Assembly (NCBI GenBank): GCA_046484865.1
Contig: JAWOID010000011.1
Span: forward strand, 1-18,671
Direction of reading: 5' to 3'
DNA from: Candidatus Krumholzibacteriia bacterium
GTDB lineage: Bacteria; Krumholzibacteriota; Krumholzibacteriia; LZORAL124-64-63
Length of the DNA: 18,671 nt
Shown here: piece by piece, positions 187-14,919 of the stretch
How positions within the stretch are numbered: the stretch's first letter is position 1
Layout: the number at the start of each line of letters is the position of its first letter
The notes under the pieces: generated by a model
What the model saw: only the letters and a program-made list of their open reading frames with translations
Told to the model about the DNA's origin: nothing
Databases searched by the model: none
Translations under genes and position numbers: made by a program

Positions 187-413
187 GGCGCCGCCGAAGT
201 CGACGCCCCGCCGTTAAAATGGAGATGAATCATCCAGATTAGCGTTCAACCGATTCGCGGGCGACCGCGAGGGGCGCGATCTTGACGGAAACGGGACGGC
301 TCCTGCGGCGGCCGGCGGTGAACGCGTCCGTTCGAAACGCGGCGCTTGTTCTGCTGGCGAAGCCGGCCCCGAGCCGATGGCCCCGCTCCGGTGGCGAAGC
401 CGGCCCTGCTCCG

Positions 414-1553
414 ATGGTAAAGGTGGTCCTCTTGTCTTCGACTCATCCCCCTTCCGGCAGCGGTCATCACGACGTGCTCGGCGCGCAGGAGCACCCGGAC
501 CTGCGGCGCAGCCTCTGGCAACTCGCCAACAGCGTGGTGCCGTACGTCCTGCTCTGGGTCCTGATGGTCCACAGCCTGAGCGTCTCCTACGCCCTCACGC
601 TGGGCCTGGCGGTCCTCGCGTCGGGGTTTCTGGTGCGCATCTTCATCATCTTCCACGACTGCGGTCACGGGTCGTTCTTCCGGTCCAGGCGTGCCAACGA
701 CGTGGTGGGTTTCCTCACCGGTGCCCTCACCCTGACGCCGCACCGGCAATGGTGGCGCCAGCACCTGCGGCATCACGGCAGCGCCGGCGACCTGGACCGC
801 CGTGGCACCGGAGACGTGTGGACGATGACGGTGAAGGAGTACCGGGCGGCGTCGCGCTGGCGGCGGCTGGTGTACCGCACGGTGCGCCAGCCCTTCTTCA
901 TGCTGGCGGTCGGTCCATTCGTGATGTTCGCCATCCTCGCCCGGTTCCCCACGCGCGACTCGCGGCGGCCCGAAGTGCTGGGCATCATGGCCACCAACCT
1001 GGTCATCGCCGGCGCGATCGCCGCCCTCGTGGCGACCATCGGCTGGCGAGCCTATCTGATGATCCACCTGCCCATCGTGGCCTTGAGCGGCGCCGCGGGC
1101 ATCTGGCTGTTCTACGTGCAGCACCAGTTCGAGGGGGCGTACTGGAGCCGGCGCGCAGACTGGGACTACGTGTCCGCCGCGGTCGAAGGCAGCTCGTTCT
1201 ACCGGCTGCCGCGCCTCCTGCAGTGGTTCTCCGGCAACATCGGCTTCCATCACGTCCACCACCTGAACGCGCGCGTGCCGAACTACCGCCTGGAAGAGTG
1301 CCACCGCGGCGACCCGCAGCTGCGGAGCGTTCGCCCCGTGACGTTGCGCGCGAGCCTGGCGTCGCTGTCGCTGCGGCTCTGGGACGAGGAGGCCGGACGG
1401 ATGGTCGGCTTCGCCGCCGCACGGGCGTCGCGGGCGTCGCGGGCGCAGCGGGCGCAGCGGGCGCCGCGGGCGCCGCGGGCGCAGCGGGCGCGGCAGAGGC
1501 GGCAGGCGCAGGCGCAGGCACAGCGTGCGCAGGAGCAGCGGGCGGAGGAGTGA
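414..1553 (+). CDS. Membrane fatty acid/acyl-lipid desaturase (Bacillus Des-like)
   Basis: Three His boxes (HDCGH, HLRHH, HHVHH) plus YVQHQFE, GNIGFHHVHHL and VPNYRL; several hydrophobic helices. The ATG at 414 is chosen as start but is uncertain; the ORF-track start at 282 adds a non-conserved extension. Confidence 0.9.
   Translation: MVKVVLLSSTHPPSGSGHHDVLGAQEHPDLRRSLWQLANSVVPYVLLWVLMVHSLSVSYALTLGLAVLASGFLVRIFIIFHDCGHGSFFRSRRANDVVGFLTGALTLTPHRQWWRQHLRHHGSAGDLDRRGTGDVWTMTVKEYRAASRWRRLVYRTVRQPFFMLAVGPFVMFAILARFPTRDSRRPEVLGIMATNLVIAGAIAALVATIGWRAYLMIHLPIVALSGAAGIWLFYVQHQFEGAYWSRRADWDYVSAAVEGSSFYRLPRLLQWFSGNIGFHHVHHLNARVPNYRLEECHRGDPQLRSVRPVTLRASLASLSLRLWDEEAGRMVGFAAARASRASRAQRAQRAPRAPRAQRARQRRQAQAQAQRAQEQRAEE
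1422..1493 (+). repeat. 9-bp coding tandem repeat, 8 copies of CGGGCGNNG
   Basis: cgggcgtcg x2, cgggcgcag x2, cgggcgccg x2, cgggcgcag, cgggcgcgg. Encodes RAS-RAS-RAQ-RAQ-RAP-RAP-RAQ-RAR in the desaturase tail. Confidence 0.95.
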
Positions 1554-1554
1554 G

Positions 1555-2784
1555 GTGCAGAGCGGGAGGGTTCCCGGACGACGAGGGCGTGAACGGCGAC
1601 GCGCACCGCGTCGCCGCCGCCGGCTCGCGCGCCCGCTCCTGACGGTGGGCGGGGTATTGCTGGCGCTGGTGCTGATGCTCGTCGGCTGGGGGCTGGTGGA
1701 ACCGCTGACGCTGCGCCGGGAGGAGGAGACGGCGATCGTGCCCGGGCTGCCGTCGGCCTGGGAAGGTCGCCGGATCGCCGCCTTCGGCGACCTGCAGATC
1801 GGCATGTGGTGGGACAACGTGGGCACGGTGGAGCGCGCGGTGGATCTGGTCCTGGCCGAACGGCCGGCGGCCGCGCTGATCCTCGGCGACCTCGTCTATC
1901 ACATCGACCGGCCGGACGCCGGCGAGATCGCCACGGTGACCGGCATCCTGGGCCGGCTGCCCGGTGCCGGCATCCCCACCTTCGCCGTCCTGGGCAACCA
2001 TGATCACGGCATCTCGCGCGAGCAGGACGCGGAGATCGCCGGCGTGGCCAGCGCGCTGGCAGCCGCGCTCGAGGCCGTGGGCGTCCGGGTGCTGTCGAAC
2101 CAGGCCGTGCCGCTGGTGCTCGGGGGCGCCGGCGAGACGGCGGCCGGGCAGGGCGAGACGGCGGCCGGGCAGGGCGAGACGGTGGCCGGGCGGGGCGAGA
2201 CGGCGGCCGGGCAGGGCGAGACGGTGGCCGGGCGGGGCGAGACGGCGGCCGGGCAGGGCGAGACGGTGGCCGGGCAGGGCGAGACGGCGGCCGGGCGGCG
2301 AGACACCCTGTACGTGGTGGGCATCGGTTCGCACCTGGCCGGACGCGACAGCGTGGTCGCGGCGCTGCGGCACGTGCCGCCGGAGGCGGCGCGGGTGGTC
2401 TTCTTCCATCACCCGGCGGTGTTCCCGCTCCTGCCCGCCGGGGCGGCGCCGCTGGCGGTGGCGGGGCACACCCACGGCGGCCAGTTCTCGCTGCCGGGCC
2501 TGCCCGGCTGGAACGAGCTGTCGCTCGGCCGCGAGCGCGAGGTCCACGCGGCCGGCTGGGCAGACCGCTCGTACGGTGCGCCGGGCAACCGCCTGTGGGT
2601 GAACCGCGGCATCGGCATGAGCATCGTGCCCCTGCGCATCAACGCGCCGCCGGAGGTCACGTTCTTCACGCTGCAGGCTGATCCTCGCCGCCACCGGGAC
2701 GCAGCCGCTGCGGCAGCTGCAGGCGGCGGCGCAGGGAGCGCGCGGCATCGCCACGACCCAGGCGTTCGCCCAGGTACACGATGA
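1555..2784 (+). CDS. Metallophosphoesterase (YkuE/YaeI-like, calcineurin-like fold) with an N-terminal membrane anchor
   Basis: Motifs GDLQ, LGDLV, LGNHDH, HHP, GHTHGGQ, VNRGIG, PLRINAPPEV. The GTG at 1555 follows GGAGG and lies one base after the desaturase stop. N-terminal Arg cluster plus a hydrophobic helix. Confidence 0.9.
   Translation: MQSGRVPGRRGRERRRAPRRRRRLARPLLTVGGVLLALVLMLVGWGLVEPLTLRREEETAIVPGLPSAWEGRRIAAFGDLQIGMWWDNVGTVERAVDLVLAERPAAALILGDLVYHIDRPDAGEIATVTGILGRLPGAGIPTFAVLGNHDHGISREQDAEIAGVASALAAALEAVGVRVLSNQAVPLVLGGAGETAAGQGETAAGQGETVAGRGETAAGQGETVAGRGETAAGQGETVAGQGETAAGRRDTLYVVGIGSHLAGRDSVVAALRHVPPEAARVVFFHHPAVFPLLPAGAAPLAVAGHTHGGQFSLPGLPGWNELSLGREREVHAAGWADRSYGAPGNRLWVNRGIGMSIVPLRINAPPEVTFFTLQADPRRHRDAAAAAAAGGGAGSARHRHDPGVRPGTR
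2131..2298 (+). repeat. 21-bp coding tandem repeat, 8 copies (GGCGAGACGGYGGCCGGGCRG)
   Basis: Encodes GET(A/V)AG(Q/R) x8 between NQAVPLVLGGA and DTLYVVGIG. Confidence 0.97.
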
Positions 2785-3634
2785 TGCCGCCGAGAGCGGC
2801 GCCGCCCAGGACGTCCACGACGTAGTGGTAACGGCAGTAGACCGTGGACGCCGAGAGCAGCAGGAACAGGAGCGTGAACCACCAGCGATGCCGGGGGAAC
2901 CACTTCCAGACGTGGTACCAGGGCACCAGGGTGGCGGCCACGTGGCTCGAGGGGAAGGCCGCGCCCAGGATCGCGCCGGTCTCGTGGATGTGGCGCATGA
3001 TCGCGGTGAACGGTCCGCCGGTCACCGCGATGGGTCCGGTCTGGAAGTACTTGGGGCCCCACACGGGGAATAGGGTGTAGAGCGTGTAGCAGATGAGCAT
3101 CACGGCGGCCAGGTCGCGTATCAGCGACCGCAGGGCGACCCAGCGGTAGCCGTCAGGCACGCCCCGCGCCCGCAGGATCAGGTAGACCGCCGTGAAGCTG
3201 GCCAGGTAGTAGGAGAAGTACGCGAACTCCATCAACTCGTGGAACCACGGCCACGGCCAGGCCCGCGACCAGTCGAGGCTCGGCTGGCCACCGAAGAGCG
3301 CGGCCTCGATCCGGATGAGGGCGGGGTCCAGCGAGTTCTCGAACGGGAAGAAGATCAGGCCCAGGTACTCCATCTCGCCATAGAAGACGGGGAACAGGAA
3401 GGGCAGGTAGATCTCACCCGCCAGCCGGGGCCAGACCCCGCGCCGCTGCCGGAGCAGAGGGGGCAGGAACCACACCAGGAGCGCGATGCCCACGTGGACG
3501 AGCACATTGGTGTAGGGGTCAGGAAAGGTGTCCGGGCGCAGGATGGGATAGAAGGCCGACGCGCCCAGGTAGATGACGGCCCAGCGGTCGATGTCGCGGC
3601 GGTGCACGGAGAGGCGGGCGATCCGCCGCTTCAT
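2666..3634 (-). CDS. PAP2 superfamily polytopic membrane protein (PAP2_3 / Aur1-IPC-synthase-like)
   Basis: About 7 hydrophobic helices; motifs AYFSYY, LFPVWGP, AAFPSSH (2942-2956) and STVYCRYHYVVD (H-x3-D at 2813-2827). The ATG at 3634 overlaps the upstream stop (ATGA); alternative ATG at 3643. Confidence 0.85.
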   Translation of the reverse strand: MKRRIARLSVHRRDIDRWAVIYLGASAFYPILRPDTFPDPYTNVLVHVGIALLVWFLPPLLRQRRGVWPRLAGEIYLPFLFPVFYGEMEYLGLIFFPFENSLDPALIRIEAALFGGQPSLDWSRAWPWPWFHELMEFAYFSYYLASFTAVYLILRARGVPDGYRWVALRSLIRDLAAVMLICYTLYTLFPVWGPKYFQTGPIAVTGGPFTAIMRHIHETGAILGAAFPSSHVAATLVPWYHVWKWFPRHRWWFTLLFLLLSASTVYCRYHYVVDVLGGAALGGIIVYLGERLGRGDAARSLRRRLQLPQRLRPGGGEDQPAA

Positions 3635-4659
3635 GTCATCCATCGCGCACCCCGGTAGAAGTCCAGCGTGTCCTGCAGTCCGCCGGCCAGCTGGAAGCGT
3701 GGCCGGAACTCCGTCTCCCGCAGCAGTCGCTCGCCGCTGCACACCCACCCCGGCGCCGTGAGATCGGTCAGCCGGTCGGGGTTCAGCAGCGGCCAGCGCC
3801 GGGCGCGTTCGCCCAGCAGCGCGCTCGCCCAGCGCAGCGGCGCCACCGGCAGGGGCACCGTGCGGACGCGCCGGCGCAGGACCTGCGCCAGGGCCGCGGT
3901 CAGTTCCTGCGGGTCGTGGCCCCAGCGATGGCGGCGCTGCGCCGCAACGGGTCCGGTCGCGTCGTCGCCGCCGTCGTCCACGAAGTACACCCCTCGTGCG
4001 GTGGGCGTGGCCAGCAGCGTCACCGCGGCCTCGGCTGCATCCGCTCCGTGCACCAGCGAGAGTCCGCTCAGACTGCCGCCGGGCCGGGCGGTCCACCCCA
4101 GCGCCGCCGCCCGGAACAGGAGGAGGAACTCCCGGTCGCGCGGTCCGTAGAGCGCCGGCGGGCGCAGGACCGCCGTGCGGAACGGCCAGTCCACCTCGTT
4201 CACCAGCGCCTCGGCCGCCACCTTGCTGCGGCCGTAGGCGGAGATCGGGCGGCAGGGGGCGCTCTCGACCTGCGGCGCTGCCAGGGGCGCCGGCCCGGCG
4301 GCCGCGAGGCTCGAGATCAGCACCACCGCCTCGATCCCGTCCGTCTGGGCGGCCGCCGCGAGCAGCGCCCGCGTGGTGTCCACGTTCCCCCGCCGGTAGC
4401 CTTCCTCGTCGCGCGCGGCCACCACGCCCGCGCAGTGCACCAGCCAGCGCGCGCCGCGGAGCAGGCGCTGCGTGTCGGCCGCCGACGCCAGGTCGGCGAC
4501 GACCGTTTCCACCGGCTTGTCGCGCAGCCAGCGCAGATCGGAGGTGGGGCGTACCGACGCGCGCACCCGGGCGCCGCGCAACAGCAGGCGGTCGGCGATG
4601 TGGCTGCCGAGAAAACCGGTGGCGCCGGTGACCACCGCCAGGGGCGGCGGCGCGGTCAT
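3631..4659 (-). CDS. cerR: NAD-dependent epimerase/dehydratase (extended SDR), probable ceramide reductase (CerR-like)
   Basis: TGATGFLG Rossmann motif, HCAG, SSLAA, YGRSK, LRPPALYGPRD. ATGA overlap with the upstream gene. The SDR call is firm; the CerR role is inferred from position after spt and the cerS-like gene. Confidence 0.75.
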   Translation of the reverse strand: MTAPPPLAVVTGATGFLGSHIADRLLLRGARVRASVRPTSDLRWLRDKPVETVVADLASAADTQRLLRGARWLVHCAGVVAARDEEGYRRGNVDTTRALLAAAAQTDGIEAVVLISSLAAAGPAPLAAPQVESAPCRPISAYGRSKVAAEALVNEVDWPFRTAVLRPPALYGPRDREFLLLFRAAALGWTARPGGSLSGLSLVHGADAAEAAVTLLATPTARGVYFVDDGGDDATGPVAAQRRHRWGHDPQELTAALAQVLRRRVRTVPLPVAPLRWASALLGERARRWPLLNPDRLTDLTAPGWVCSGERLLRETEFRPRFQLAGGLQDTLDFYRGARWMT

Positions 4660-5813
4660 GACGCGGGCATCTCGTAGATGCGGTAGGTCTTCGTCTTCAC
4701 GCCGCCGTAGCTGCGCATGACGATGTTCATCGGGCGGTTGGTCTCGAGCACCCAGCTGCACTCGCCGCGGGCGATGCCCTTGGGGAAGGTCGCCTGCATG
4801 GTGCGGTAGACGAGAGCGGCGTCCACGCCCTTGTTGCGGTACTCCGGACGCACGCCCATGAGCAGCGTACGGGCCATCCGGATCCGGCGCTTCGCCAGCA
4901 GGAAGCGCAGCCAGCCGAAGGGGAACAGCTTGCCGCGCAGCGGCTTGAGAGCCTGGTTGAAGTCGGGCACGCTGAGGGCGAAGCCGATCGGCCGCCCCTC
5001 GTCGTTCTCGGCGATGAGCAGGAAGCTGGGATCGACCATCGACTTCATGTCCTTGGCCAGGTAGGCGAACTCCGCGTCGTCCAGCGGGATGAAGCCCCAG
5101 TTCCTGCTCCACGCCTCGTTGTAGATCTCGCGGACGATGCTGGCGTCTTCCCAGAAACGGTCCATCCGGAAGGGCCGGATGGTGAAGGTCGCCGTGGCCA
5201 TGATGCGGTCCATGAACCGCTGCAGCTTCTCGGGGACGGTGCCGCCCGTGTCCAGATCCCAGGCATACAGGTCCATCGCCTTGTACAGCCCGTAATCCTC
5301 GAGCAACGTCGCGTAGTAGGGCGGCTGGTAGGGCATGCCCACCACCGGATCCTTGTCGTAGCCGTCGACGAGCAGGCCCAGGTAGTCGTGGTTGGTGGTG
5401 AACGACGCGGGACCGCGCAGGATCTCCATGCCGTGTTCGGCAACCCACCCGCGGGCGGCGTCCAGCAGCGCGCATGCCGTCACCGGATCGTCCTCGCACT
5501 CGAAGAAGCCGAAGAAGCCCGTCTTCTCGCCGCTGTGCTCGTTGTGGTAGCGATCCACGCAGGCCCCGACGCGCCCCACCACGCGCGGGCGGCCCCCGCC
5601 CGATCGGCGGCGCGCCAGCCAGAGCCGGGTGTCGGCGTGGGCGAAGAACGGGTTGTGTCCCGGATCGAAGAACGCCTTCTGCTCCCTCAGCAGTGGAAAG
5701 ACGTAGTGCGGCTCGTCGGCGTAGAGACGGTACGGCAGGCGCAGGAAGTCGTCCAGGTCGCCCGCGCCCGCGACCGGTTCCACCTGCACGTCCATGCGCG
5801 GCCGTGTCGTCAT
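4656..5813 (-). CDS. cerS: GNAT-like acyltransferase, probable bacterial ceramide synthase (CerS-like)
   Basis: Family motifs FLRLPYRLY...NPFFAH...VGRV...GFFGFFECEDD...LRGP...GLLVDGY...MPYQPPYY...NEAWSRNWGFIP...PDFNQAL...MGVRPEYRNKG...SWVLETN...KTYRIY. Starts 13 bp after the spt stop; alternative ATG at 5795. Confidence 0.8.
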   Translation of the reverse strand: MTTRPRMDVQVEPVAGAGDLDDFLRLPYRLYADEPHYVFPLLREQKAFFDPGHNPFFAHADTRLWLARRRSGGGRPRVVGRVGACVDRYHNEHSGEKTGFFGFFECEDDPVTACALLDAARGWVAEHGMEILRGPASFTTNHDYLGLLVDGYDKDPVVGMPYQPPYYATLLEDYGLYKAMDLYAWDLDTGGTVPEKLQRFMDRIMATATFTIRPFRMDRFWEDASIVREIYNEAWSRNWGFIPLDDAEFAYLAKDMKSMVDPSFLLIAENDEGRPIGFALSVPDFNQALKPLRGKLFPFGWLRFLLAKRRIRMARTLLMGVRPEYRNKGVDAALVYRTMQATFPKGIARGECSWVLETNRPMNIVMRSYGGVKTKTYRIYEMPAS

Positions 5814-5826
5814 GGGATTCGGCGTC

Positions 5827-7008
5827 TCAGGAGATGACACCCAGCTCCTTGCCCACCTTGACCATCTTGTCCATCGCCTCATGGATCTGGTCCTCGGTGT
5901 GGGTGGCCATCAGGCTGAGGCGGATCAGCGCCTTGCCGGGGTCCACCGCCGGCGAGACGACGGGATTGACGAAGACGCCCTCCTCGAACAGGCGGCAGCA
6001 CATCTTGAATGCCAGCATGTCCTCGCCGATGACGGCGGGAACGACGGGCGTCTCGGACGGTCCGGTATCGAAGCCGGCGTCCTGGAGCCGCGTGAGCAGG
6101 ATCTCGGTGTTGCGCCACAGTGCCTCGTGGCGCCACTGTTCCTCGAGCATGACGTCGACGGCCGCCGAGACCGACGCCACCGAGGCGGGCGGCATGCTCG
6201 CCGAGAAGATCAGAGCCCGGGCCGAGTGCTTGATGTAGTTGATGGTCTGCGCGTCCGACGCCACGAAGCCGCCCACCGACGCCAGCGACTTGCTGAACGT
6301 GCCCATGATCAGGTGCACGCGATCGGTGAGACCGAAGTGGTCGACGGTGCCGCGGCCCTGCTCGCCCATGACGCCGATGCCGTGGGCGTCGTCCACCATC
6401 ACGCTGGCGCCGTACTGCTCGGCCAGCGCCACGATCTCGGGCAGACGGGCGATGTCGCCTTCCATCGAGAACACGCCGTCCACGACGATGAGCTTGCTGC
6501 TGCTCGCCTCGGACTTCAGGACGAACTCGAGGTTCTCCATGTCGTTGTGTCGGAACTTCCTCACCTGTCCGAAGGAGAGCCGGGTGCCGTCGATGATCGA
6601 GGCGTGATCGGTGCGGTCCACCACCACCACCTCGTTGCGTCCGACCAGCGTCGAGATCACGCCCTGGTTCACCATGAAGCCGGTGCTGAAGACCAGCGCC
6701 CCCTCCTTGCCCACCAGGCCCGCGAGCTTTTCCTCGAGTTCCACGTGGATGTCGAGCGTGCCGTTGAGGAAGCGCGAACCCGCGCAGCCGGTGCCGTACT
6801 TCTCGATGGCGCGGCAGGCCGCCTCCTTGACGCGGGGGTGATTGGTGAGGCCCAGGTAGTTGTTGCTGCCGAGCATGATCACTTCACGCCCGTTGTACTT
6901 CACCGTGCTCTCCTGGGCCGACTCGATGACCCGGAAGAAGGTATAGAGCCCGGCCTGCTGGACTTCCCGGGCAGCGGTGAAGTTGTAGACCTTGTCGAGC
7001 AGACCCAT
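5827..7008 (-). CDS. spt: Serine palmitoyltransferase (PLP-dependent alpha-oxoamine synthase family)
   Basis: GSNNYLGL, YGTGCAGSRFLNGTLDIH, DHASI, DGVFSMEGD, VDDAHG, GTFSKSL (PLP Lys), IFSAS, SLMATH. Closely resembles Bacteroides-type Spt rather than BioF or Kbl. GGAG RBS at 7013-7016. Confidence 0.88.
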   Translation of the reverse strand: MGLLDKVYNFTAAREVQQAGLYTFFRVIESAQESTVKYNGREVIMLGSNNYLGLTNHPRVKEAACRAIEKYGTGCAGSRFLNGTLDIHVELEEKLAGLVGKEGALVFSTGFMVNQGVISTLVGRNEVVVVDRTDHASIIDGTRLSFGQVRKFRHNDMENLEFVLKSEASSSKLIVVDGVFSMEGDIARLPEIVALAEQYGASVMVDDAHGIGVMGEQGRGTVDHFGLTDRVHLIMGTFSKSLASVGGFVASDAQTINYIKHSARALIFSASMPPASVASVSAAVDVMLEEQWRHEALWRNTEILLTRLQDAGFDTGPSETPVVPAVIGEDMLAFKMCCRLFEEGVFVNPVVSPAVDPGKALIRLSLMATHTEDQIHEAMDKMVKVGKELGVIS

Positions 7009-7127: not shown

Positions 7128-8549
7128 TCAGCGCGGGGGTTCCTCCAGGATCTCGGCCTCGAAGGTCGCGAATGTGGCGCCGCTCCGCCAGCCGTCTCGC
7201 GGCAGTCCGGCCTTGAGGGCGAGGTGCTCGAGGGTGGTGGTCAGGTCCCACCCCTGCTCGGGTGCCACCTGGGGCAGGAAGACGGCTCGCAGCAGACCCT
7301 TGCGCAGCAGGATCCCGTGGCGGCCGAGGCGGATCTGGTCCGGCCCGGACACGTCGCGCAGCGGAGTGAGGGCGGAGATCTCCACGCGGATGTCGGCCAG
7401 TTCAGCGGGACGGACCGGCGCGAAGCGCGGGTCGGCGAGCGCGGCGCTGCGGGCGTTCTCGATCACGGCCTGCGCCAGGGGCTTCACCGGTTCGATGTAG
7501 CCGATGCACCCGCGCAGTTCTCCTCGCCTCGTGAGGGTGACGAACGCGCCGCGCTTCGCCAGCAGCGCCGGGGTGAGTTCCCCGCCCCCGGCGCGTGCCG
7601 CCTCCTGCGGGTCCGGCGGCTCGTCGCCGCGAACCGCCGCCTCCAGCGCGCGGCGAGCCAGCGCGAGCAGGGCGTCCGACTCGGCCCGGGTCAGACCCGG
7701 CGCCGTGAGCATGATGGCGGCATAGCTCACCGAGAGCGCGTGGTCGCCGTCGCGATCGCCGCTGCGCCGGTAGTCCAGCAACTCGGCCTCGTAGCCCGCC
7801 GGAGCGGGGCCGGAGATCGCCAGCGCCGCAGCGTCCAGGCCGCACATCGTGATGCCCGTCTCGCGGCCATAGGCGATCAGCCCCTCGGCATCGTGGCCGA
7901 GAACGCGCAGGATCGCGCCCGCGTCCAGCTGTTCCAGGCGATCGGCGATCTCGGTGCGGAAGGGCACGTACCCGTAGCTGTCGCCGTAATGGGTGAAGTC
8001 GGTGGAGACGACGACCAGGTCGTCGTCCCGGCGCAGTCGCTGCAGGGCCGCGGCGGCGGCCCGGCGCCGTTCCGCCGGCAGGGGAGGGACGAGCAGCGGC
8101 ACGAGCCGGAACCCCGGTGCGAGCGCCCGCTGGAGGAACGGGAGCTGGATCTCCACCGCGTGTTCGCGTTCGTGGGCGCGGTCGTCCACCGCGAAGGCGG
8201 GGTCCGCGGCCAGGTCCCGCACCGCATCCCGGTCCACCGGCACCTCTCCCAGCGGCGTGGCGAAGGCGGCGGCGCCGCTAAGAGCCACGCGGTCCAGGCG
8301 CACCCGGTGGCTCGGCGCCAGCACGAACACGCGTCCGAGCCGTTCACCCCGCAGCAGGCCGTAAACCCGGCCGGCCGTGGCGCCGCTGTACACGTAGCCC
8401 GCATGCGGCGCCACCACGAGGTGCGCGCGACCCTGCGGTCGCCGCTCCGGCTCGGCACCGGACAGGTAGCCGTCCACGGCGGCGGCGAGGTCCCGGCTCG
8501 GGCCCGGATACCAGGTTCCGCTGAGCACGGCGGGGCGCACGGTCGCCAT
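7128..8549 (-). CDS. amrB: AmmeMemoRadiSam system protein B-A fusion (MEMO1 domain + AMMECR1 domain)
   Basis: N-terminal VRPAVLSGTWYP, APHAGYVYSG, EHAVEIQLPFLQ, STDFTHY, TMCG (MEMO1). C-terminal GAFVTL, LRGCIG, DPRF, FLPQV (AMMECR1). GGAGG RBS just upstream of the ATG at 8549. Confidence 0.92.
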   Translation of the reverse strand: MATVRPAVLSGTWYPGPSRDLAAAVDGYLSGAEPERRPQGRAHLVVAPHAGYVYSGATAGRVYGLLRGERLGRVFVLAPSHRVRLDRVALSGAAAFATPLGEVPVDRDAVRDLAADPAFAVDDRAHEREHAVEIQLPFLQRALAPGFRLVPLLVPPLPAERRRAAAAALQRLRRDDDLVVVSTDFTHYGDSYGYVPFRTEIADRLEQLDAGAILRVLGHDAEGLIAYGRETGITMCGLDAAALAISGPAPAGYEAELLDYRRSGDRDGDHALSVSYAAIMLTAPGLTRAESDALLALARRALEAAVRGDEPPDPQEAARAGGGELTPALLAKRGAFVTLTRRGELRGCIGYIEPVKPLAQAVIENARSAALADPRFAPVRPAELADIRVEISALTPLRDVSGPDQIRLGRHGILLRKGLLRAVFLPQVAPEQGWDLTTTLEHLALKAGLPRDGWRSGATFATFEAEILEEPPR

Positions 8550-8738
8550 CGAGGACCTCCTGAACCGGTGGGGCAGCGCTGTGCGGGGCGGCCCGCGACG
8601 CGCGGCGGCATGCGCCCACGCTAACAAAGAGAGGAGCCGCCGGTCCAGTCGGGGCTTGCCTTGGGCGCGCAGACTCCGGATTATACCCGTCGAGTCATCA
8701 CCCCGGCGCACCGCCGGGTCACCGGGAAGGAGATCGAT

Positions 8739-9086
8739 GTGAAGATCACCAGGAAGCCCGAGGGCGACATCATGGTTCTGCACCTGTCCGGCAAGATCAT
8801 GGGCGGTCCGGACCACGAGCGGTTCCACGCCGAGGTCAAATCGCTCGTCGCCGAGGGTTACGTGGACATCCTGCTGAACATGTCCAAGGTCAACTGGATC
8901 AACTCCACCGGACTGGGCATCCTGGTCACCGCCTATCACACCGTGAAGAAGAACGATGGGCGCCTCAAGATCTGCTCCGTGAGCGAGCGCATCGACAACA
9001 TCCTCAACGTCACCCAGCTCAAGCTCGTATTCGAGACCCACGAGAGCTGCGAGGAAGCGCTGGCGTCGTTCGAGCAGGACAGCTAG
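8739..9086 (+). CDS. STAS-domain anti-sigma factor antagonist (RsbV/SpoIIAA-like)
   Basis: LLNMSKVNWINSTGLGILV with the phosphoacceptor-type Ser, GRLKICSV, 115 aa. AAGGAG RBS at 8727-8732 before the GTG at 8739. Confidence 0.92.
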   Translation: MKITRKPEGDIMVLHLSGKIMGGPDHERFHAEVKSLVAEGYVDILLNMSKVNWINSTGLGILVTAYHTVKKNDGRLKICSVSERIDNILNVTQLKLVFETHESCEEALASFEQDS

Positions 9087-10370: not shown

Positions 10371-11927
10371 TCACTCCCCGTAGCCCAGATCCCGCAACCG
10401 CTGCCGCACCTCGTCGGAGAGGTCGCGCCAGGATCCGCCCGCACCTCGGGTCTGAACGGCCGCCGCCTCGCGCCAGAGCGCGAGGTGCTCCAGGAGCGAC
10501 GCCGCCACCACGGGCTCGGCGGCGGCCCGGTCAGTCTTCTCGCCCGGATCGGTGTCCAGGTCGAAGAGCCCCAGAGGCTTGCCGCCACGTTGCGCCACGA
10601 GCTTCCAGCGACCGCGGCGCACTGCCACCAGATCGGGCCCGAACGCGATGGCCTCGGAGAGCAGCGTGCGCTCCGGGCCGACCGCCGTGGCCGTTCCGAG
10701 GGCGGGCTCGGGACGGGCCGCGGCCGCGGCCCGCGGCAGCGCCGCCGCTTCGCGCGTCAGCGATCGTCCCACCAGACCGTCCACCTGCTGCTGCGGCAAC
10801 GGCAGCGGGGCCACGCCGAGCCAGTCCACCAGTGTCGGGGCGAGATCGCAGAGCGACACCGGCGCGCGGTGGCGGACGCCCGCCGGTACGCCGGGCCCGA
10901 CCGCGAGCCAGGGGACATGGAGCAGCTCCTGGAAATGCGTGTGCCCGTGGCCGATCCCGTGCCAGGGGCGAGGGTCGTGCCGCCAGTGCAGCGACTCCTC
11001 CAGGTGGTCGAGGAATTCCTCGCCGTGGTCGGCGAAGACCGAGACCAGGGTCCGCTCCTGCAGGTTCCAGCGCTCGAGCTGTCGCCAGAGCCGGCCGAGC
11101 GCGCGGTCCACCGTGGCCACCGCCGCGTCGTAGACCGCCAGCTTGGCTCGCAGCAGGGACCGTTGCACGTCCGAGAGCGGCGGCCGCGCGCGGCCCAGGT
11201 GGGCCGGACCGCGGCCCCGCTGATCCTCGCCCCACCACGCCAGGCCCGCGAACGGAGCGTCGAGCCCGTCGCCGGCGGGCTGCCAGAAGCGTCCCAGCAG
11301 ATCCGGGGGCGGAGTGGTGGGCTCGTGGGGGTCGTTGAAGAGCGTGAAGACGAAGCAGGGGCGGTCGCCGTTCCGCCGCAGCCAGTCCAGGATGAGCGCC
11401 ACCAGGTCGTCGGCCGGCAGGTTGTGGTAGGCGTGCTCCTGGAACGACTCGGCGAGGCCGAAACCGAAGAACTGGTTGGAGTAGATGGCCGCGGTGCGAT
11501 AACCCAGCGTGGCCAGATGTTGCGCCAGGGTGGTCACGTCCTCCGGCAGCCGGTGCGGCGGCTGGGTGCTCATGTTGCGCACCGTGCCGTCGAGCAGGGC
11601 GCCGTGCAGCGACGGCGTGAGCCCGGTCAGAGCGCTGGAGAACGACGGCAGCGTCCAGGGAGCGGGGGCCATCACGTCGTCGAAGCAGGTTCCGAGAGCG
11701 GCCAGGGCGTCGAGGTGCGGCGAGGTGGCCCGCCGGTATCCCGCCAGACCCAAGTGATCGTACCGGAGCGTGTCCACGCCCATGAGCAACAGGTGCGGCG
11801 GACCGGAATGCCGCGCCGGACGACCGCTGCCCGCCGGATCCAGCAACCAGCGCCGCGAGCGCTCCAGGCGTCCCCGCCAGCGCTGCTTCCAAACCAGGCC
11901 GCGGAACGGATCGCGGATCATGGGCAT
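10371..11927 (-). CDS. Sulfatase-like hydrolase/transferase (alkaline phosphatase superfamily)
   Basis: VDTLRYDHLG, TSPHLD, APWTLPSFSSALTG, DPHEP, YDAAV, ADHGEEF, GHG, LCDLAPTL, FDLDTDPGEK and a C-terminal LRDLGY. Start could be 11927 or 11921. Confidence 0.88.
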   Translation of the reverse strand: MPMIRDPFRGLVWKQRWRGRLERSRRWLLDPAGSGRPARHSGPPHLLLMGVDTLRYDHLGLAGYRRATSPHLDALAALGTCFDDVMAPAPWTLPSFSSALTGLTPSLHGALLDGTVRNMSTQPPHRLPEDVTTLAQHLATLGYRTAAIYSNQFFGFGLAESFQEHAYHNLPADDLVALILDWLRRNGDRPCFVFTLFNDPHEPTTPPPDLLGRFWQPAGDGLDAPFAGLAWWGEDQRGRGPAHLGRARPPLSDVQRSLLRAKLAVYDAAVATVDRALGRLWRQLERWNLQERTLVSVFADHGEEFLDHLEESLHWRHDPRPWHGIGHGHTHFQELLHVPWLAVGPGVPAGVRHRAPVSLCDLAPTLVDWLGVAPLPLPQQQVDGLVGRSLTREAAALPRAAAAARPEPALGTATAVGPERTLLSEAIAFGPDLVAVRRGRWKLVAQRGGKPLGLFDLDTDPGEKTDRAAAEPVVAASLLEHLALWREAAAVQTRGAGGSWRDLSDEVRQRLRDLGYGE

Positions 11928-12654: not shown

Positions 12655-12870
12655 ACCCGGCGCGGTGCAGCGGCACGGGCGGATTCGGCGCTGCGGCTCC
12701 CAGCTGGAGGCGCGGCACCGGACCCGCCGACCGACGCGGCACCGGCGTGAATCGCCGGCACGCCGCGAACAGACGCGTGCACCGATCCGAGACCACCGCT
12801 GCCGCTTCCGGCTCCCGATCGCATACCCGTGGGATCGGGGCCGGGTTCCCGCCGAAGGGAGCGAGGTTCC

Positions 12871-14919
12871 ATGTTCCGTCTCCCCCGGAGAGCCTGCCGG
12901 TTCGCCCACGCCCGTCACCATGGGGTACGCGCGACCGGGCCGGCCGCTTGCATCCTGCTGGCCACGGCGGCCATCCTGATCACGGCCGCCGCGCCCCCGC
13001 TACTGGACCAGGCAACGGCCCAGACCCGTTCCCAGCCCGGGTTCGGCAGCCCGTACGTCCAGGTTGCGGAACCGGCCAAGCTGCTGTTCAGCGAGGTCAG
13101 CGTGCTCGGCAACCAGCAGGAGTACGTGGAGATCTACAACCCGAACTCCTTCCCCGTGGACATGTCCGACTACTACCTGACCGACGCCAACCACACCGGT
13201 TCGACCAGCAACTACTACTGGCGAATCACCGAGGGCAATCCCACCCAGGCCACGGTCGGGGGCGGCGCCTACTACGATTTCCACGCCCGCTTCCCGGACG
13301 GCTTCACCATTCCCGCCGGCGCGACCATCGTGGTGAGCGTCCCCGGCGCCGACGCGTTCTTCGGGCACTTCGGCTTCCTGCCCAGCCTGGAACTCTACGA
13401 CGCGGGCGGCTTGAGCGCGCAGGTACCCGATATGCGCGAGATCTTCCCGGGCAGCATCGACGGCGAGACCATGCCCACGTTCACCAACACCGGCGAGGGC
13501 GTCGTGCTCTATCACTGGGACGGCGAGAGCCCGCTGGTGACCGACATCGACGTCTTCTTCTGGGGTACCAGCACGGAGTACCGGTTCTCCAAGAACGGCG
13601 TGACGGTGCGCGGTGCCACCTACCAGCCGGAGACGACGGTCCCCAACCAGGAGCCGTTCGCCCAGGCGGCCTCCTTCGGCAACGCCTATACGCGCGTCGA
13701 TTTCACCGAGGGCGACCAGATCTCCTCCGGCAGCAACGGCGTGGACGGGCGCGACGAGCTGAGCGAGGCCTTCGAGGCCACCTTCAAGTTGCGGCCGTAC
13801 AACCCGGCGCCGCCTCCGTCGGGCGTCGCCAAGCTGCTGCTGACCGAGGTCGCCACCACCGGCGGCGGCAGGGAGTTCGTGGAGATCCACAACCCGAACG
13901 ACGAGCCGGTCGACCTCTCCGATTACTACCTCACCGACGCTGTCGACGTGACCGCCGGCCAGCTCTACTGGCAGGTCGCGGCAGGCACTCCGAGCCGGGC
14001 GACCATCGGCGGCGGCACCGACGCCGACTTCCACGCCCGCTTCCCGGCCGGATACACGGTCGGCGCGGGAGAGACGATCGTCGTGAGCATCGGCGGCGCC
14101 GGCGCCTTCGAGTCGGCGTACGGCTTCTTGCCTGCGCTCGCTCTGCACGGGGGCGACACCGCGGGCGAAGCGGTGCCCGACCTGCGCGAGGTCTTCCCGG
14201 GCAGCATCGTCGGCGACACCGAGCCCAGTCTCGATCAGGCCGGCGAGGTCGTCGTCCTCTACCACTGGAGCGGCGTCGGCGATCTGGTCACCGACGTGGA
14301 CGTGTTCTTCTGGGGGACCGAAACCAGTTACCGCTTCTCCAAGACGGGCGTCACGGTGGGCGGCTCCACCTACCTGCCGGAGACCGCGGTGGAGAACCAG
14401 CGACCGTTCGCGGCAGCACTGGCTGCCGGCCAGTCATACACCCGCGTCGACCTCGACGAGGGCGACCAGGTGGCCACCGGCAGCAACGGCGTGGACGGGC
14501 GCGACGAGTTGAGCGAGGATCTCGAGGCGACGTTCGCGATCCGGTCGGCCAACCCCGTGGCGCCGCCCGAGGTTGACGACGAGCGGGTCGCGCTGCGTGT
14601 TCCGACCGCCACCTTCGATGCCCGTAACGGCGAGGTCTTCCCGGTGGGCATCCGGACGATCGCGGGCGCGGCGACGCAGCTGCGGATCTTCGACCTGGAG
14701 GGGCGGCTCGTGATCACCCTGTTCGACAGCCGCTTCGACGACGACGCCGCCACCGAGCCCGACGTGCTGACGGAACTGCTCTGGGACGGCCGCGACAGCA
14801 CATTCGAACGCGTCCCTGCCGGCCTGTACATCGTGCACCTGTCGGTGGTCGACGTGCGCACCGGCGAGAAGACCACGAAGACCGCGCCGGCCGTGGTCGC
14901 CACCGACCTGGGCAACTGA
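12871..14919 (+). CDS. Secreted protein with two lamin-tail-like (LTD) repeats and a C-terminal FlgD-Ig/T9SS-CTD-like domain
   Basis: Signal-peptide-like region ending ATA|Q. Two copies of LL(F/L)(S/T)EV...E(Y/F)VEI(Y/H)NP...VD(M/L)SDYYLTD. C-terminal LRIFDLEGRLV...LLWDGRD...VPAGLYIVHL. Purine-rich RBS before the ATG at 12871. Confidence 0.8.
   Translation: MFRLPRRACRFAHARHHGVRATGPAACILLATAAILITAAAPPLLDQATAQTRSQPGFGSPYVQVAEPAKLLFSEVSVLGNQQEYVEIYNPNSFPVDMSDYYLTDANHTGSTSNYYWRITEGNPTQATVGGGAYYDFHARFPDGFTIPAGATIVVSVPGADAFFGHFGFLPSLELYDAGGLSAQVPDMREIFPGSIDGETMPTFTNTGEGVVLYHWDGESPLVTDIDVFFWGTSTEYRFSKNGVTVRGATYQPETTVPNQEPFAQAASFGNAYTRVDFTEGDQISSGSNGVDGRDELSEAFEATFKLRPYNPAPPPSGVAKLLLTEVATTGGGREFVEIHNPNDEPVDLSDYYLTDAVDVTAGQLYWQVAAGTPSRATIGGGTDADFHARFPAGYTVGAGETIVVSIGGAGAFESAYGFLPALALHGGDTAGEAVPDLREVFPGSIVGDTEPSLDQAGEVVVLYHWSGVGDLVTDVDVFFWGTETSYRFSKTGVTVGGSTYLPETAVENQRPFAAALAAGQSYTRVDLDEGDQVATGSNGVDGRDELSEDLEATFAIRSANPVAPPEVDDERVALRVPTATFDARNGEVFPVGIRTIAGAATQLRIFDLEGRLVITLFDSRFDDDAATEPDVLTELLWDGRDSTFERVPAGLYIVHLSVVDVRTGEKTTKTAPAVVATDLGN
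13075..14556 (+). repeat. Internal tandem duplication of a ~243-aa module (13075-13806 and 13828-14556)
   Basis: Colinear motifs (FHARFP, RE(I/V)FPGSI, VVLYHW, VTD(I/V)DVFFWGT, GSNGVDGRDELSE). An identical 32-bp stretch occurs at 13727-13758 and 14477-14508. Confidence 0.93.

Follow-up and report, generated by a model that had tools for sequence, protein, structure and literature searches.

Contig C15 of a Candidatus Krumholzibacteriia bacterium, 18,671 nucleotides long and analysed here in its entirety (the window), belongs to a metagenome-assembled genome (MAG) of 4.07 Mb in 148 contigs that is 88% complete. The minus strand of the window carries a compact four-gene unit, spt-cerS-cerR-PAP2_3, and the product of its last gene, P0001, is very probably a ceramide phospho-head-group transferase, whichever phospholipid serves as the donor. 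A narrower identity as an inositol phosphorylceramide (IPC) synthase was favoured, if only slightly, and P0001 most likely performs the final step of the operon pathway. Bacterial ceramide synthesis has been worked out only recently, and to our knowledge the enzymes adding the head group are known for very few bacteria. The fold, the motifs, the homology, the gene linkage and the lipid gene content of the genome were determined in silico. An initial annotation of the same DNA had proposed Aur1/SMS-type transfer of a head group to ceramide. This enzyme class was supported by the homology and fold shared with Aur1, the invariant catalytic triad, the lost phosphatase residues and the linkage to ceramide genes in several phyla, and the activity itself is predicted from sequence and model. 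The genes of the unit were located as follows.

5827-7008, minus strand: spt, serine palmitoyltransferase, first gene of the four-gene core (Aminotran_1_2, 193.5 bits)
4656-5813, alternative start 5882, minus strand: GNAT-like protein in the bCerS position, 385-408 aa (weak Acetyltransf_1 match)
3631-4659, minus strand: cerR-type NAD-dependent epimerase/reductase, 342 aa (Pfam Epimerase, 97 bits)
2666-3634, minus strand: Aur1-like PAP2_3 gene for P0001, 322 aa, predicted ceramide phospho-head-group transferase (translation, Pfam and model)
3631-3634, minus strand: ATGA in which the stop of cerR overlaps the start of PAP2_3 (read from the sequence)

The reading frame at 2666-3634 translated open into the 322 residues of P0001. 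Its ATG (3634-3632) overlaps the TGA of cerR (3633-3631), as the initial annotation had described for the last gene of the spt operon, and the overlap may reflect translational coupling. A second ATGA overlap was present at the junction of cerS and cerR (4659-4656), and 13 bases lie between the spt stop, ending at 5827, and the nearest in-frame ATG of cerS at 5813. The GC content at third codon positions (GC3) was 0.92-0.93 in each of the four genes. Against the NCBIfam serine palmitoyltransferase model NF047600, the spt product scored 598.7 bits, 41 bits under the cut-off of 640. The GNAT-like protein gave an Acetyltransf_1 score of 21.7 bits and is regarded as a candidate bCerS from its operon position and GNAT-like domain. 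The genes thus correspond to the names given to them earlier (spt, a GNAT-like gene in the cerS position and an NAD-epimerase-type gene in the cerR position), and a serine palmitoyltransferase, a GNAT-type acyltransferase and an NAD-epimerase-type reductase encoded together are the mark of a bacterial ceramide operon. A promoter and terminator scan returned no promoter-like sites, and the terminator-like sites all lay inside genes. The true start of cerS may be the ATG at 5813, the first 23 codons of the longer frame overlapping the end of spt. Among the 67 cerS matches listed from related genomes, 16 carried one or two in-frame stops (TGA; one also TAG), and the stop-bearing matches mostly began at query residues 2-4.

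By sequence comparison, P0001 is a full-length homologue of fungal Aur1. The Pfam family PAP2_3 (PF14378), the Aur1/Ipt1-type branch, matched at 61 bits (E 1.7e-16, cut-off 27) over positions 2-190 of its 190-position profile, whereas PAP2 (PF01569) reached 33.7 bits (cut-off 27.2) on the C2-C3 part only. This comparison had been suggested as a check on the assignment, and its outcome favoured the Aur1 branch. PAP2_C (PF14360), the sphingomyelin synthase family, stayed at 23.5 bits, under its cut-off of 27. The family is large: among 8,000 candidates scored from a 90%-clustered collection, 569 proteins were related at E <= 0.001, the best 120 of them with 58-73% identity, and a 50%-clustered library yielded 1,864 representative clusters at E <= 0.001, including 607 at <= 1e-10. 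A family alignment of 139 sequences was built; 16 were close relatives, and 122 had 23-33% identity. When its profile was compared with the sequences of the PDB, Aur1 was the top match (E 7.5e-10), with profile positions 12-282 corresponding to Aur1 42-314, about 270 residues. PgpB, YodM and LpxE matched the profile at positions 213-293 only, its last third. A search of the PDB sequences with P0001 alone gave just a weak C3-motif match to YodM (E 0.11), too weak to reach Aur1, which was therefore found only with the family profile. A 676-aa library representative, P0123, was considered as a Rosetta-stone fusion of cerR and PAP2_3 and was left out; its CerR alignment contained out-of-frame-looking stretches, and the sequence is probably an assembly, frameshift or gene-calling artefact across the overlapping genes.

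The AlphaFold model of P0001, built on the alignment, had a pLDDT of 93.4 and a pTM of 0.90 and contained about eight membrane helices, with a non-conserved, low-confidence stretch of about 25 residues at the C terminus. In a Foldseek search of the PDB, the sole matches at E <= 0.001 were yeast IPC synthase, 9vj4_A (7.8e-6) and 9ivc_A (4.6e-5). The model showed the full-length fold of the Aur1 catalytic subunit, that is, the PAP2 core together with the N-terminal ceramide-chamber helices. The structural check proposed earlier therefore gave Aur1 as the best fold match, and the SMSr match was partial (model residues ~63-304 only) and ranked under Aur1 and several phosphatases. P0001 is accordingly modelled as a predicted eight-helix inner-membrane enzyme in the Aur1 branch (PAP2_3) of the lipid phosphate phosphatase/phosphotransferase superfamily. 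Clusters of lysine and arginine occur at the N terminus, in the loops at ~63-66, 156-160 and 244-250 and at the C terminus, and the conserved motifs sit in loops that alternate with these. Under the positive-inside rule applied to the model helices, the termini and the Arg/Lys-rich loops would be cytoplasmic and the conserved motifs would lie on the outer face. Caulobacter CerR acts on the periplasmic side of the inner membrane (PMC11087976). By analogy, ceramide would be completed on that side, and the outward-facing active site predicted for P0001 agrees with this.

The three motif regions of the predicted active site were found at the following positions.

2942-2956, minus strand: C2 motif FPSSH, residues 227-231 (regular expression; aligned to Aur1 AFPSLH)
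2813-2848, minus strand: C3 motif STVYCRYHYVVD, residues 263-274 (regular expression; aligned to Aur1 TMYLTHHYFVD)
3053-3073, minus strand: degenerate C1-equivalent LFPVWGP, residues 188-194 (aligned to Aur1 FPAAPPWY)

The C2 and C3 motifs had been reported in the initial annotation and were found again as described, and its third motif, given as LFP-x2-P, was miscounted by one residue and is LFP-x3-P. Seven residues, Y139, P190, P228, S229, H231, H270 and D274, were invariant in all 139 aligned sequences. In the family profile, H231, H270 and D274 align with H255, H294 and D298 of Aur1 as a His-His-Asp triad and are their predicted counterparts. Mutating any single one of these Aur1 residues abolishes IPC synthesis, and the triad has been proposed to work through a phospho-histidine intermediate (PMC13133130). 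The C2 motif was conserved in the PSGH-like form PS[SAG]H in 138 of the 139 sequences. In the C1-equivalent region, conservation was also high (G193 in 136/139, P194 in 132/139, F or Y at residue 186 in 136/139).

Canonical PAP2 phosphatases hold the phosphomonoester with a lysine and an arginine of C1 and an arginine of C3. In P0001, the C1 lysine position (186) is occupied by Phe/Tyr and the C1 arginine position (193) by Gly, with the C1 proline retained, and Thr264 stands at the C3 arginine position (T264 in 113/139). All three basic residues were replaced in 138-139 of the 139 relatives. The lack of K-x6-RP noted in the initial annotation held for P0001 and extended to the whole alignment (0/139 by regular expression), and the phosphatase form of C3, SR-x5-H-x3-D, appeared once in 139. 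The other PAP2 protein of the genome, P0271 (contig C142), served as an internal control: its motifs are KNTVKRPRP, FPSGH and SRSWLGVHYPSD, all three canonical basic residues are kept, and the protein scores as undecaprenyl-diphosphatase/PgpB-like.

These residues bear on the possibility that P0001 is a lipid phosphate phosphatase in or near the pathway, which would act on ceramide-1-phosphate or a long-chain-base phosphate, or would convert phosphatidylinositol phosphate (PIP) into phosphatidylinositol (PI). We regard such a role as quite unlikely. The His-His-Asp triad and the phospho-histidine intermediate are common to true phosphatases (PMC13133130), but the basic residues that P0271 retains were lost across the family of P0001. 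The protein does belong to the PAP2 superfamily and passes the PF01569 cut-off; its homology to Aur1, however, is full-length, and the phosphatases match in the last third only. A further point against the transferase assignment is that relatives bear generic public names, such as 'phosphatase PAP2 family protein' and 'membrane-associated phospholipid phosphatase'. Also against a phosphatase, no ceramide kinase was noticed in the Pfam annotation of the operon.

The linkage of the gene to ceramide genes was surveyed in a locus scan with one genome per species, in which 327 relatives were found and the best 80 loci were examined. Seventy-one closer loci, mostly labelled Krumholzibacteriia, encoded proteins with 43-73% identity to P0001, and nine distant loci encoded proteins with 31-38% identity. 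Among the closer loci, cerR was immediately upstream on the same strand in all 63 that had 1 kb or more of DNA on that side, cerS was present in all 56 with at least 2.3 kb, and spt in all 54 with at least 3.5 kb. Since this synteny is largely one inherited arrangement, the nine distant loci weigh more. Five of them, from Verrucomicrobiota, Brocadiia and one unclassified organism, adjoined spt, cerR or cerS: L081 (Brocadiaceae) had the complete order spt-cerS-cerR-PAP2_3, L077 and L078 (Verrucomicrobia) had spt-cerR-PAP2_3, and L075 and L079 had a convergent cerS homologue. The survey of neighbours, in which a lack of linkage would have counted against the original proposal, thus showed ceramide genes adjoining in 54/54 closer and 5/9 distant loci.

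Two further observations were made on these loci. In L077, the minus-strand frame at 1045-3360 encodes a 771-aa protein with FeeM/GNAT N-acyl amino acid synthase-like and aminotransferase class V domains, divergent from spt, and the cerS homologue of that genome is on a different contig. Records titled 'uncultured Fibrobacteraceae bacterium' (L005, L010, L022, L029 and others) share the operon, at 56-67% identity, with Krumholzibacteriia-titled records, and these MAG records appear to be labelled inconsistently as to organism.

Co-occurrence was examined in 151 genomes from the phylum of the window and 121 genomes of Verrucomicrobiota. Within the phylum, the PAP2_3 gene was found in 62 genomes and cerS in 66; both were present in 61 and neither in 84. 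One genome, G094, had the PAP2_3 gene alone, with the match some 1 kb away from the end of a contig. Where both genes occurred, 57 of the 61 genomes had them on one contig, ~1-1.4 kb apart, and four genomes of the same family (G030, G059, G078 and G118) were missing both. In Verrucomicrobiota, the gene was detected at E <= 1e-30 only in G163 and G192, both among the 10 cerS-positive genomes.

It is very improbable that P0001 is a membrane protein without a link to sphingolipids, such as an enzyme that modifies lipid A or a carrier lipid, and that it stands at the end of the operon only through inherited gene order. Several facts suit such a protein or weaken the main assignment. Much of the co-occurrence within the phylum goes back to a single trait inherited in one family, in which other neighbours, such as a Memo-AMMECR1 gene (47/48 loci), are conserved too; four of the nine distant loci (L074, L076, L080 and L082) had no sphingolipid neighbour; and cerS occurred without the PAP2_3 gene in five Krumholzibacteriota and eight Verrucomicrobiota genomes. 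On the other side, the stop and start codons of cerR and the PAP2_3 gene overlap, and the gene was lost along with cerS in the four same-family genomes. Moreover, in Verrucomicrobiota and Brocadiia the gene still adjoined spt, cerR or cerS at 31-38% identity, among otherwise different neighbours, and both gene-positive Verrucomicrobiota genomes were cerS-positive against a background of 10/121.

As a ceramide head-group transferase, P0001 can be compared with several known systems. Among the closest is the catalytic subunit of the IPC synthase of Saccharomyces cerevisiae, Aur1 (PDB 9vj3/9vj4 and 9ivc), with which P0001 shares the aligned His-His-Asp triad, a C1-like FP..(G/P)P in place of K-x6-RP and a motif set on the non-cytoplasmic side (predicted in P0001). 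The two proteins have only 14-18% identity, and P0001, with 322 aa, is without the long C-terminal tail of Aur1; it is bacterial, and its gene shares an operon with a ceramide pathway of Caulobacter type. The sphingomyelin synthase family (SMS1/2 and SMSr) was more remote, with PAP2_C below threshold. From the canonical PAP2 enzymes PgpB, YodM, LpxE, LPP1 and G6PC1, P0001 differs in missing the C1 Lys/Arg and the C3 Arg and in having two to three extra N-terminal helices, which are common to Aur1 only. The operon of Caulobacter crescentus unites the same three enzyme types, Spt, bCerS and CerR. In the head-group route of Caulobacter, ceramide is phosphorylated by a kinase (CpgB), whereas the operon of P0001 has an Aur1-type transferase at the fourth position in place of the kinase route.

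The initial annotation had named ceramide kinases, CDP-alcohol transferases and glycosyltransferases as the bacterial head-group routes known to it, and the premise that only these are known in bacteria was wrong. BT_1522 of Bacteroides thetaiotaomicron was selected because it is homologous to yeast AUR1; after its deletion, phosphoinositol dihydroceramide is no longer made, whereas phosphoethanolamine dihydroceramide (PE-dihydroceramide) is unaffected (PMC9246714). The novelty implied earlier was therefore overstated, an Aur1-like PI-dihydroceramide synthase having been described there (PMC9246714). NCBI curates the enzyme as NF052609, phosphoinositol dihydroceramide synthase. P0001 and BT_1522 are both bacterial Aur1 homologues of the same superfamily with the same proposed reaction, and both hosts encode a synthase of myo-inositol phosphate (MIPS) and a PIP synthase, or a PIP-synthase-like protein in the genome of P0001. 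The gene for BT_1522, however, is clustered with genes for inositol lipids (PIP synthase, PgpA-like phosphatase and MIPS) and is not in a ceramide operon; the arrangement for P0001 is the reverse, the gene being in the ceramide operon, with MIPS on contig C27 and the PIP-synthase-like gene on contig C19. Judged by its score of 16.5 bits against the NF052609 cut-off of 480, P0001 appears to represent a clade distinct from BT_1522. Aur1-like bacterial transferases are thus already known, and the clade of P0001 is a different and uncharacterised one, not a new type of system.

The literature search, which left most subscription journals outside its scope, found no paper joining Krumholzibacteri and sphingolipid, none tying CerR/bCerS to AUR1, IPC synthase or PAP2, and none identifying a bacterial ceramide phosphoethanolamine or ceramide phosphoglycerol synthase. 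The paper on Black Sea sphingolipids (PMC11334938) mentions neither PAP2 nor IPC synthase nor Aur1, and the BT_0972 paper (PMC9278070) does not mention a neighbouring PAP2 gene.

The probable donor was assessed from the lipid genes of the genome itself and of 61 genomes of its taxonomic family, 44 of which are at least 90% complete. The sole CDP-alcohol phosphatidyltransferase of the genome, on contig C19, scored 134.9 bits as archaetidylinositol-phosphate synthase, 128.4 as PIP synthase, 93.8 as BT_1523-type PIP synthase and 29.6 as pgsA. A PIP-synthase-like gene was present in 58 of the 61 family genomes (113-151 bits), and 36 of the 61 had a single CDP-alcohol transferase match. MIPS was found in 58 of 60 family genomes. 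Neither the 88%-complete genome nor any of the 61 family genomes gave a match to phosphatidylserine (PS) decarboxylase, and the Bacteroides, E. coli and Bacillus controls were positive. Taken together, MIPS, the PIP-synthase-like gene and the missing PS decarboxylase favour PI over other donors and IPC over other products. The initial annotation had left inositol, ethanolamine and glycerol open as the head group, and the choice is hereby narrowed to inositol as the most likely. The phospholipid genes of the family seem to form an unusual set, which also suggests that its membranes are based on inositol lipids, without phosphatidylethanolamine. MIPS was tried as a discriminator of IPC and was dropped, as it occurred in 142 of the 151 phylum genomes, with or without the operon. 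G030, G059, G078 and G118, which have neither the PAP2_3 gene nor cerS, retain MIPS and the PIP-synthase-like gene. The P0001 gene is thus dispensable for the PI route, which argues against P0001 as the PIP phosphatase of that route.

It is possible, although rather unlikely, that P0001 performs the same transferase chemistry with another donor: phosphatidylglycerol (PG), giving ceramide phosphoglycerol, phosphatidylethanolamine, giving ceramide phosphoethanolamine, or another phospholipid. The fold, motif and linkage evidence fits such donors equally. Head-group choice varies in the superfamily, with PI used by Aur1 and phosphatidylethanolamine by SMSr (PMC13133130), and Bacteroides without BT_1522 still makes PE-dihydroceramide (PMC9246714), so bacteria must have another transferase for other head groups. 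Several further results are less favourable to an IPC synthase. The PIP-synthase-like genes always scored below the curated cut-off of 170. MIPS and the PIP-synthase-like gene also occur in operon-less genomes, so that they permit IPC without pointing to it. The 25 of 61 family genomes with further CDP-alcohol transferase paralogues could make PG or PS with these. No pgsA was found in the 61 family genomes at E <= 1e-10, but the Bacteroides control was also silent, which makes this negative weak, and the pgsA model may be insensitive in the superphylum. P0001 matched the equivalog model NF052609 far below its cut-off and in the C2-C3 region only, and the genome gave no other match to that model. 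Yeast Aur1 acts with Kei1, which is described for the fungal complex only (PMC13133130), and a search of the 88%-complete genome gave no match to Kei1 (PF08552). What speaks against the other donors is the lack of PS decarboxylase throughout the family with positive controls, the one CDP-alcohol transferase match in most family genomes, and the PIP-synthase-like character of the only such enzyme in the genome of P0001.

From these data, we infer the substrates, product, membrane side and chemical mechanism of P0001. In the proposed pathway, Spt, the GNAT-type ceramide synthase and CerR would first produce (dihydro)ceramide. P0001 would then take a phospho-head group off a glycerophospholipid, releasing diacylglycerol, and attach it to this ceramide at its C1 hydroxyl. 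By analogy with Aur1, D274 would activate H270, which would attack the phosphodiester of the donor to form a phospho-histidine intermediate, and H231 would help the ceramide hydroxyl to accept the head group. The catalytic loops would be placed at the periplasmic face, as predicted by the positive-inside rule on the model. With PI as the donor, the product would be IPC.

The remaining features of the window were as follows.

282-1553, plus strand: DesA-like Delta5 fatty-acid desaturase (NF052548, 436 bits, cut-off 500)
1525-2784, plus strand: LpxG/YaeI-like metallophosphoesterase, converging on the operon, as does the desaturase
7128-9041, minus strand: fused Memo-AMMECR1 protein (AmmeMemoRadiSam system proteins B and A in a single 637-aa frame)
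10371-11927, minus strand: sulfatase
12829-14919, plus strand: lamin-tail-domain protein, 696 aa
15845-18670, plus strand: HHH_3 (helix-hairpin-helix) repeat protein, >940 aa, running off the contig end

The Memo-AMMECR1 gene lies 119 nt upstream of spt; it was kept there in 47 of the 48 closer loci with enough DNA and at none of the distant loci. No radical-SAM partner for it was recognised within the window. At its 3' end, which is not conserved, the PAP2_3 gene shares 119 nt with the metallophosphoesterase frame. Neither the desaturase nor the metallophosphoesterase had a match at E < 1e-10 in the flanks (up to 6 kb per side) of the 80 related loci. Several long frames between the sulfatase, lamin-tail and HHH_3 genes had no Pfam match.

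A broader view of the clade is offered tentatively. P0001 and its relatives may be stand-alone, Kei1-independent, periplasm-facing IPC synthases with the whole eight-helix architecture of fungal Aur1, working in a bacterial family whose membranes would combine PI and IPC without phosphatidylethanolamine. Occurring also beside ceramide genes in Verrucomicrobiota and Planctomycetota, the clade could be the principal way in which bacteria make phosphosphingolipids, and eukaryotic IPC synthases could have arisen from this prokaryotic relative. With its size and its place beside ceramide genes in several phyla, the gene family may well supply a phosphosphingolipid synthase that is widespread in bacteria. 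Assigning its function would reach hundreds of proteins annotated as 'PAP2 phosphatase'. A relative of Aur1, an antifungal target, that is small and needs no partner subunit could also serve as a convenient model of that enzyme. If the assignment is true, IPC would be predicted as a lipid biomarker for Krumholzibacteriota.

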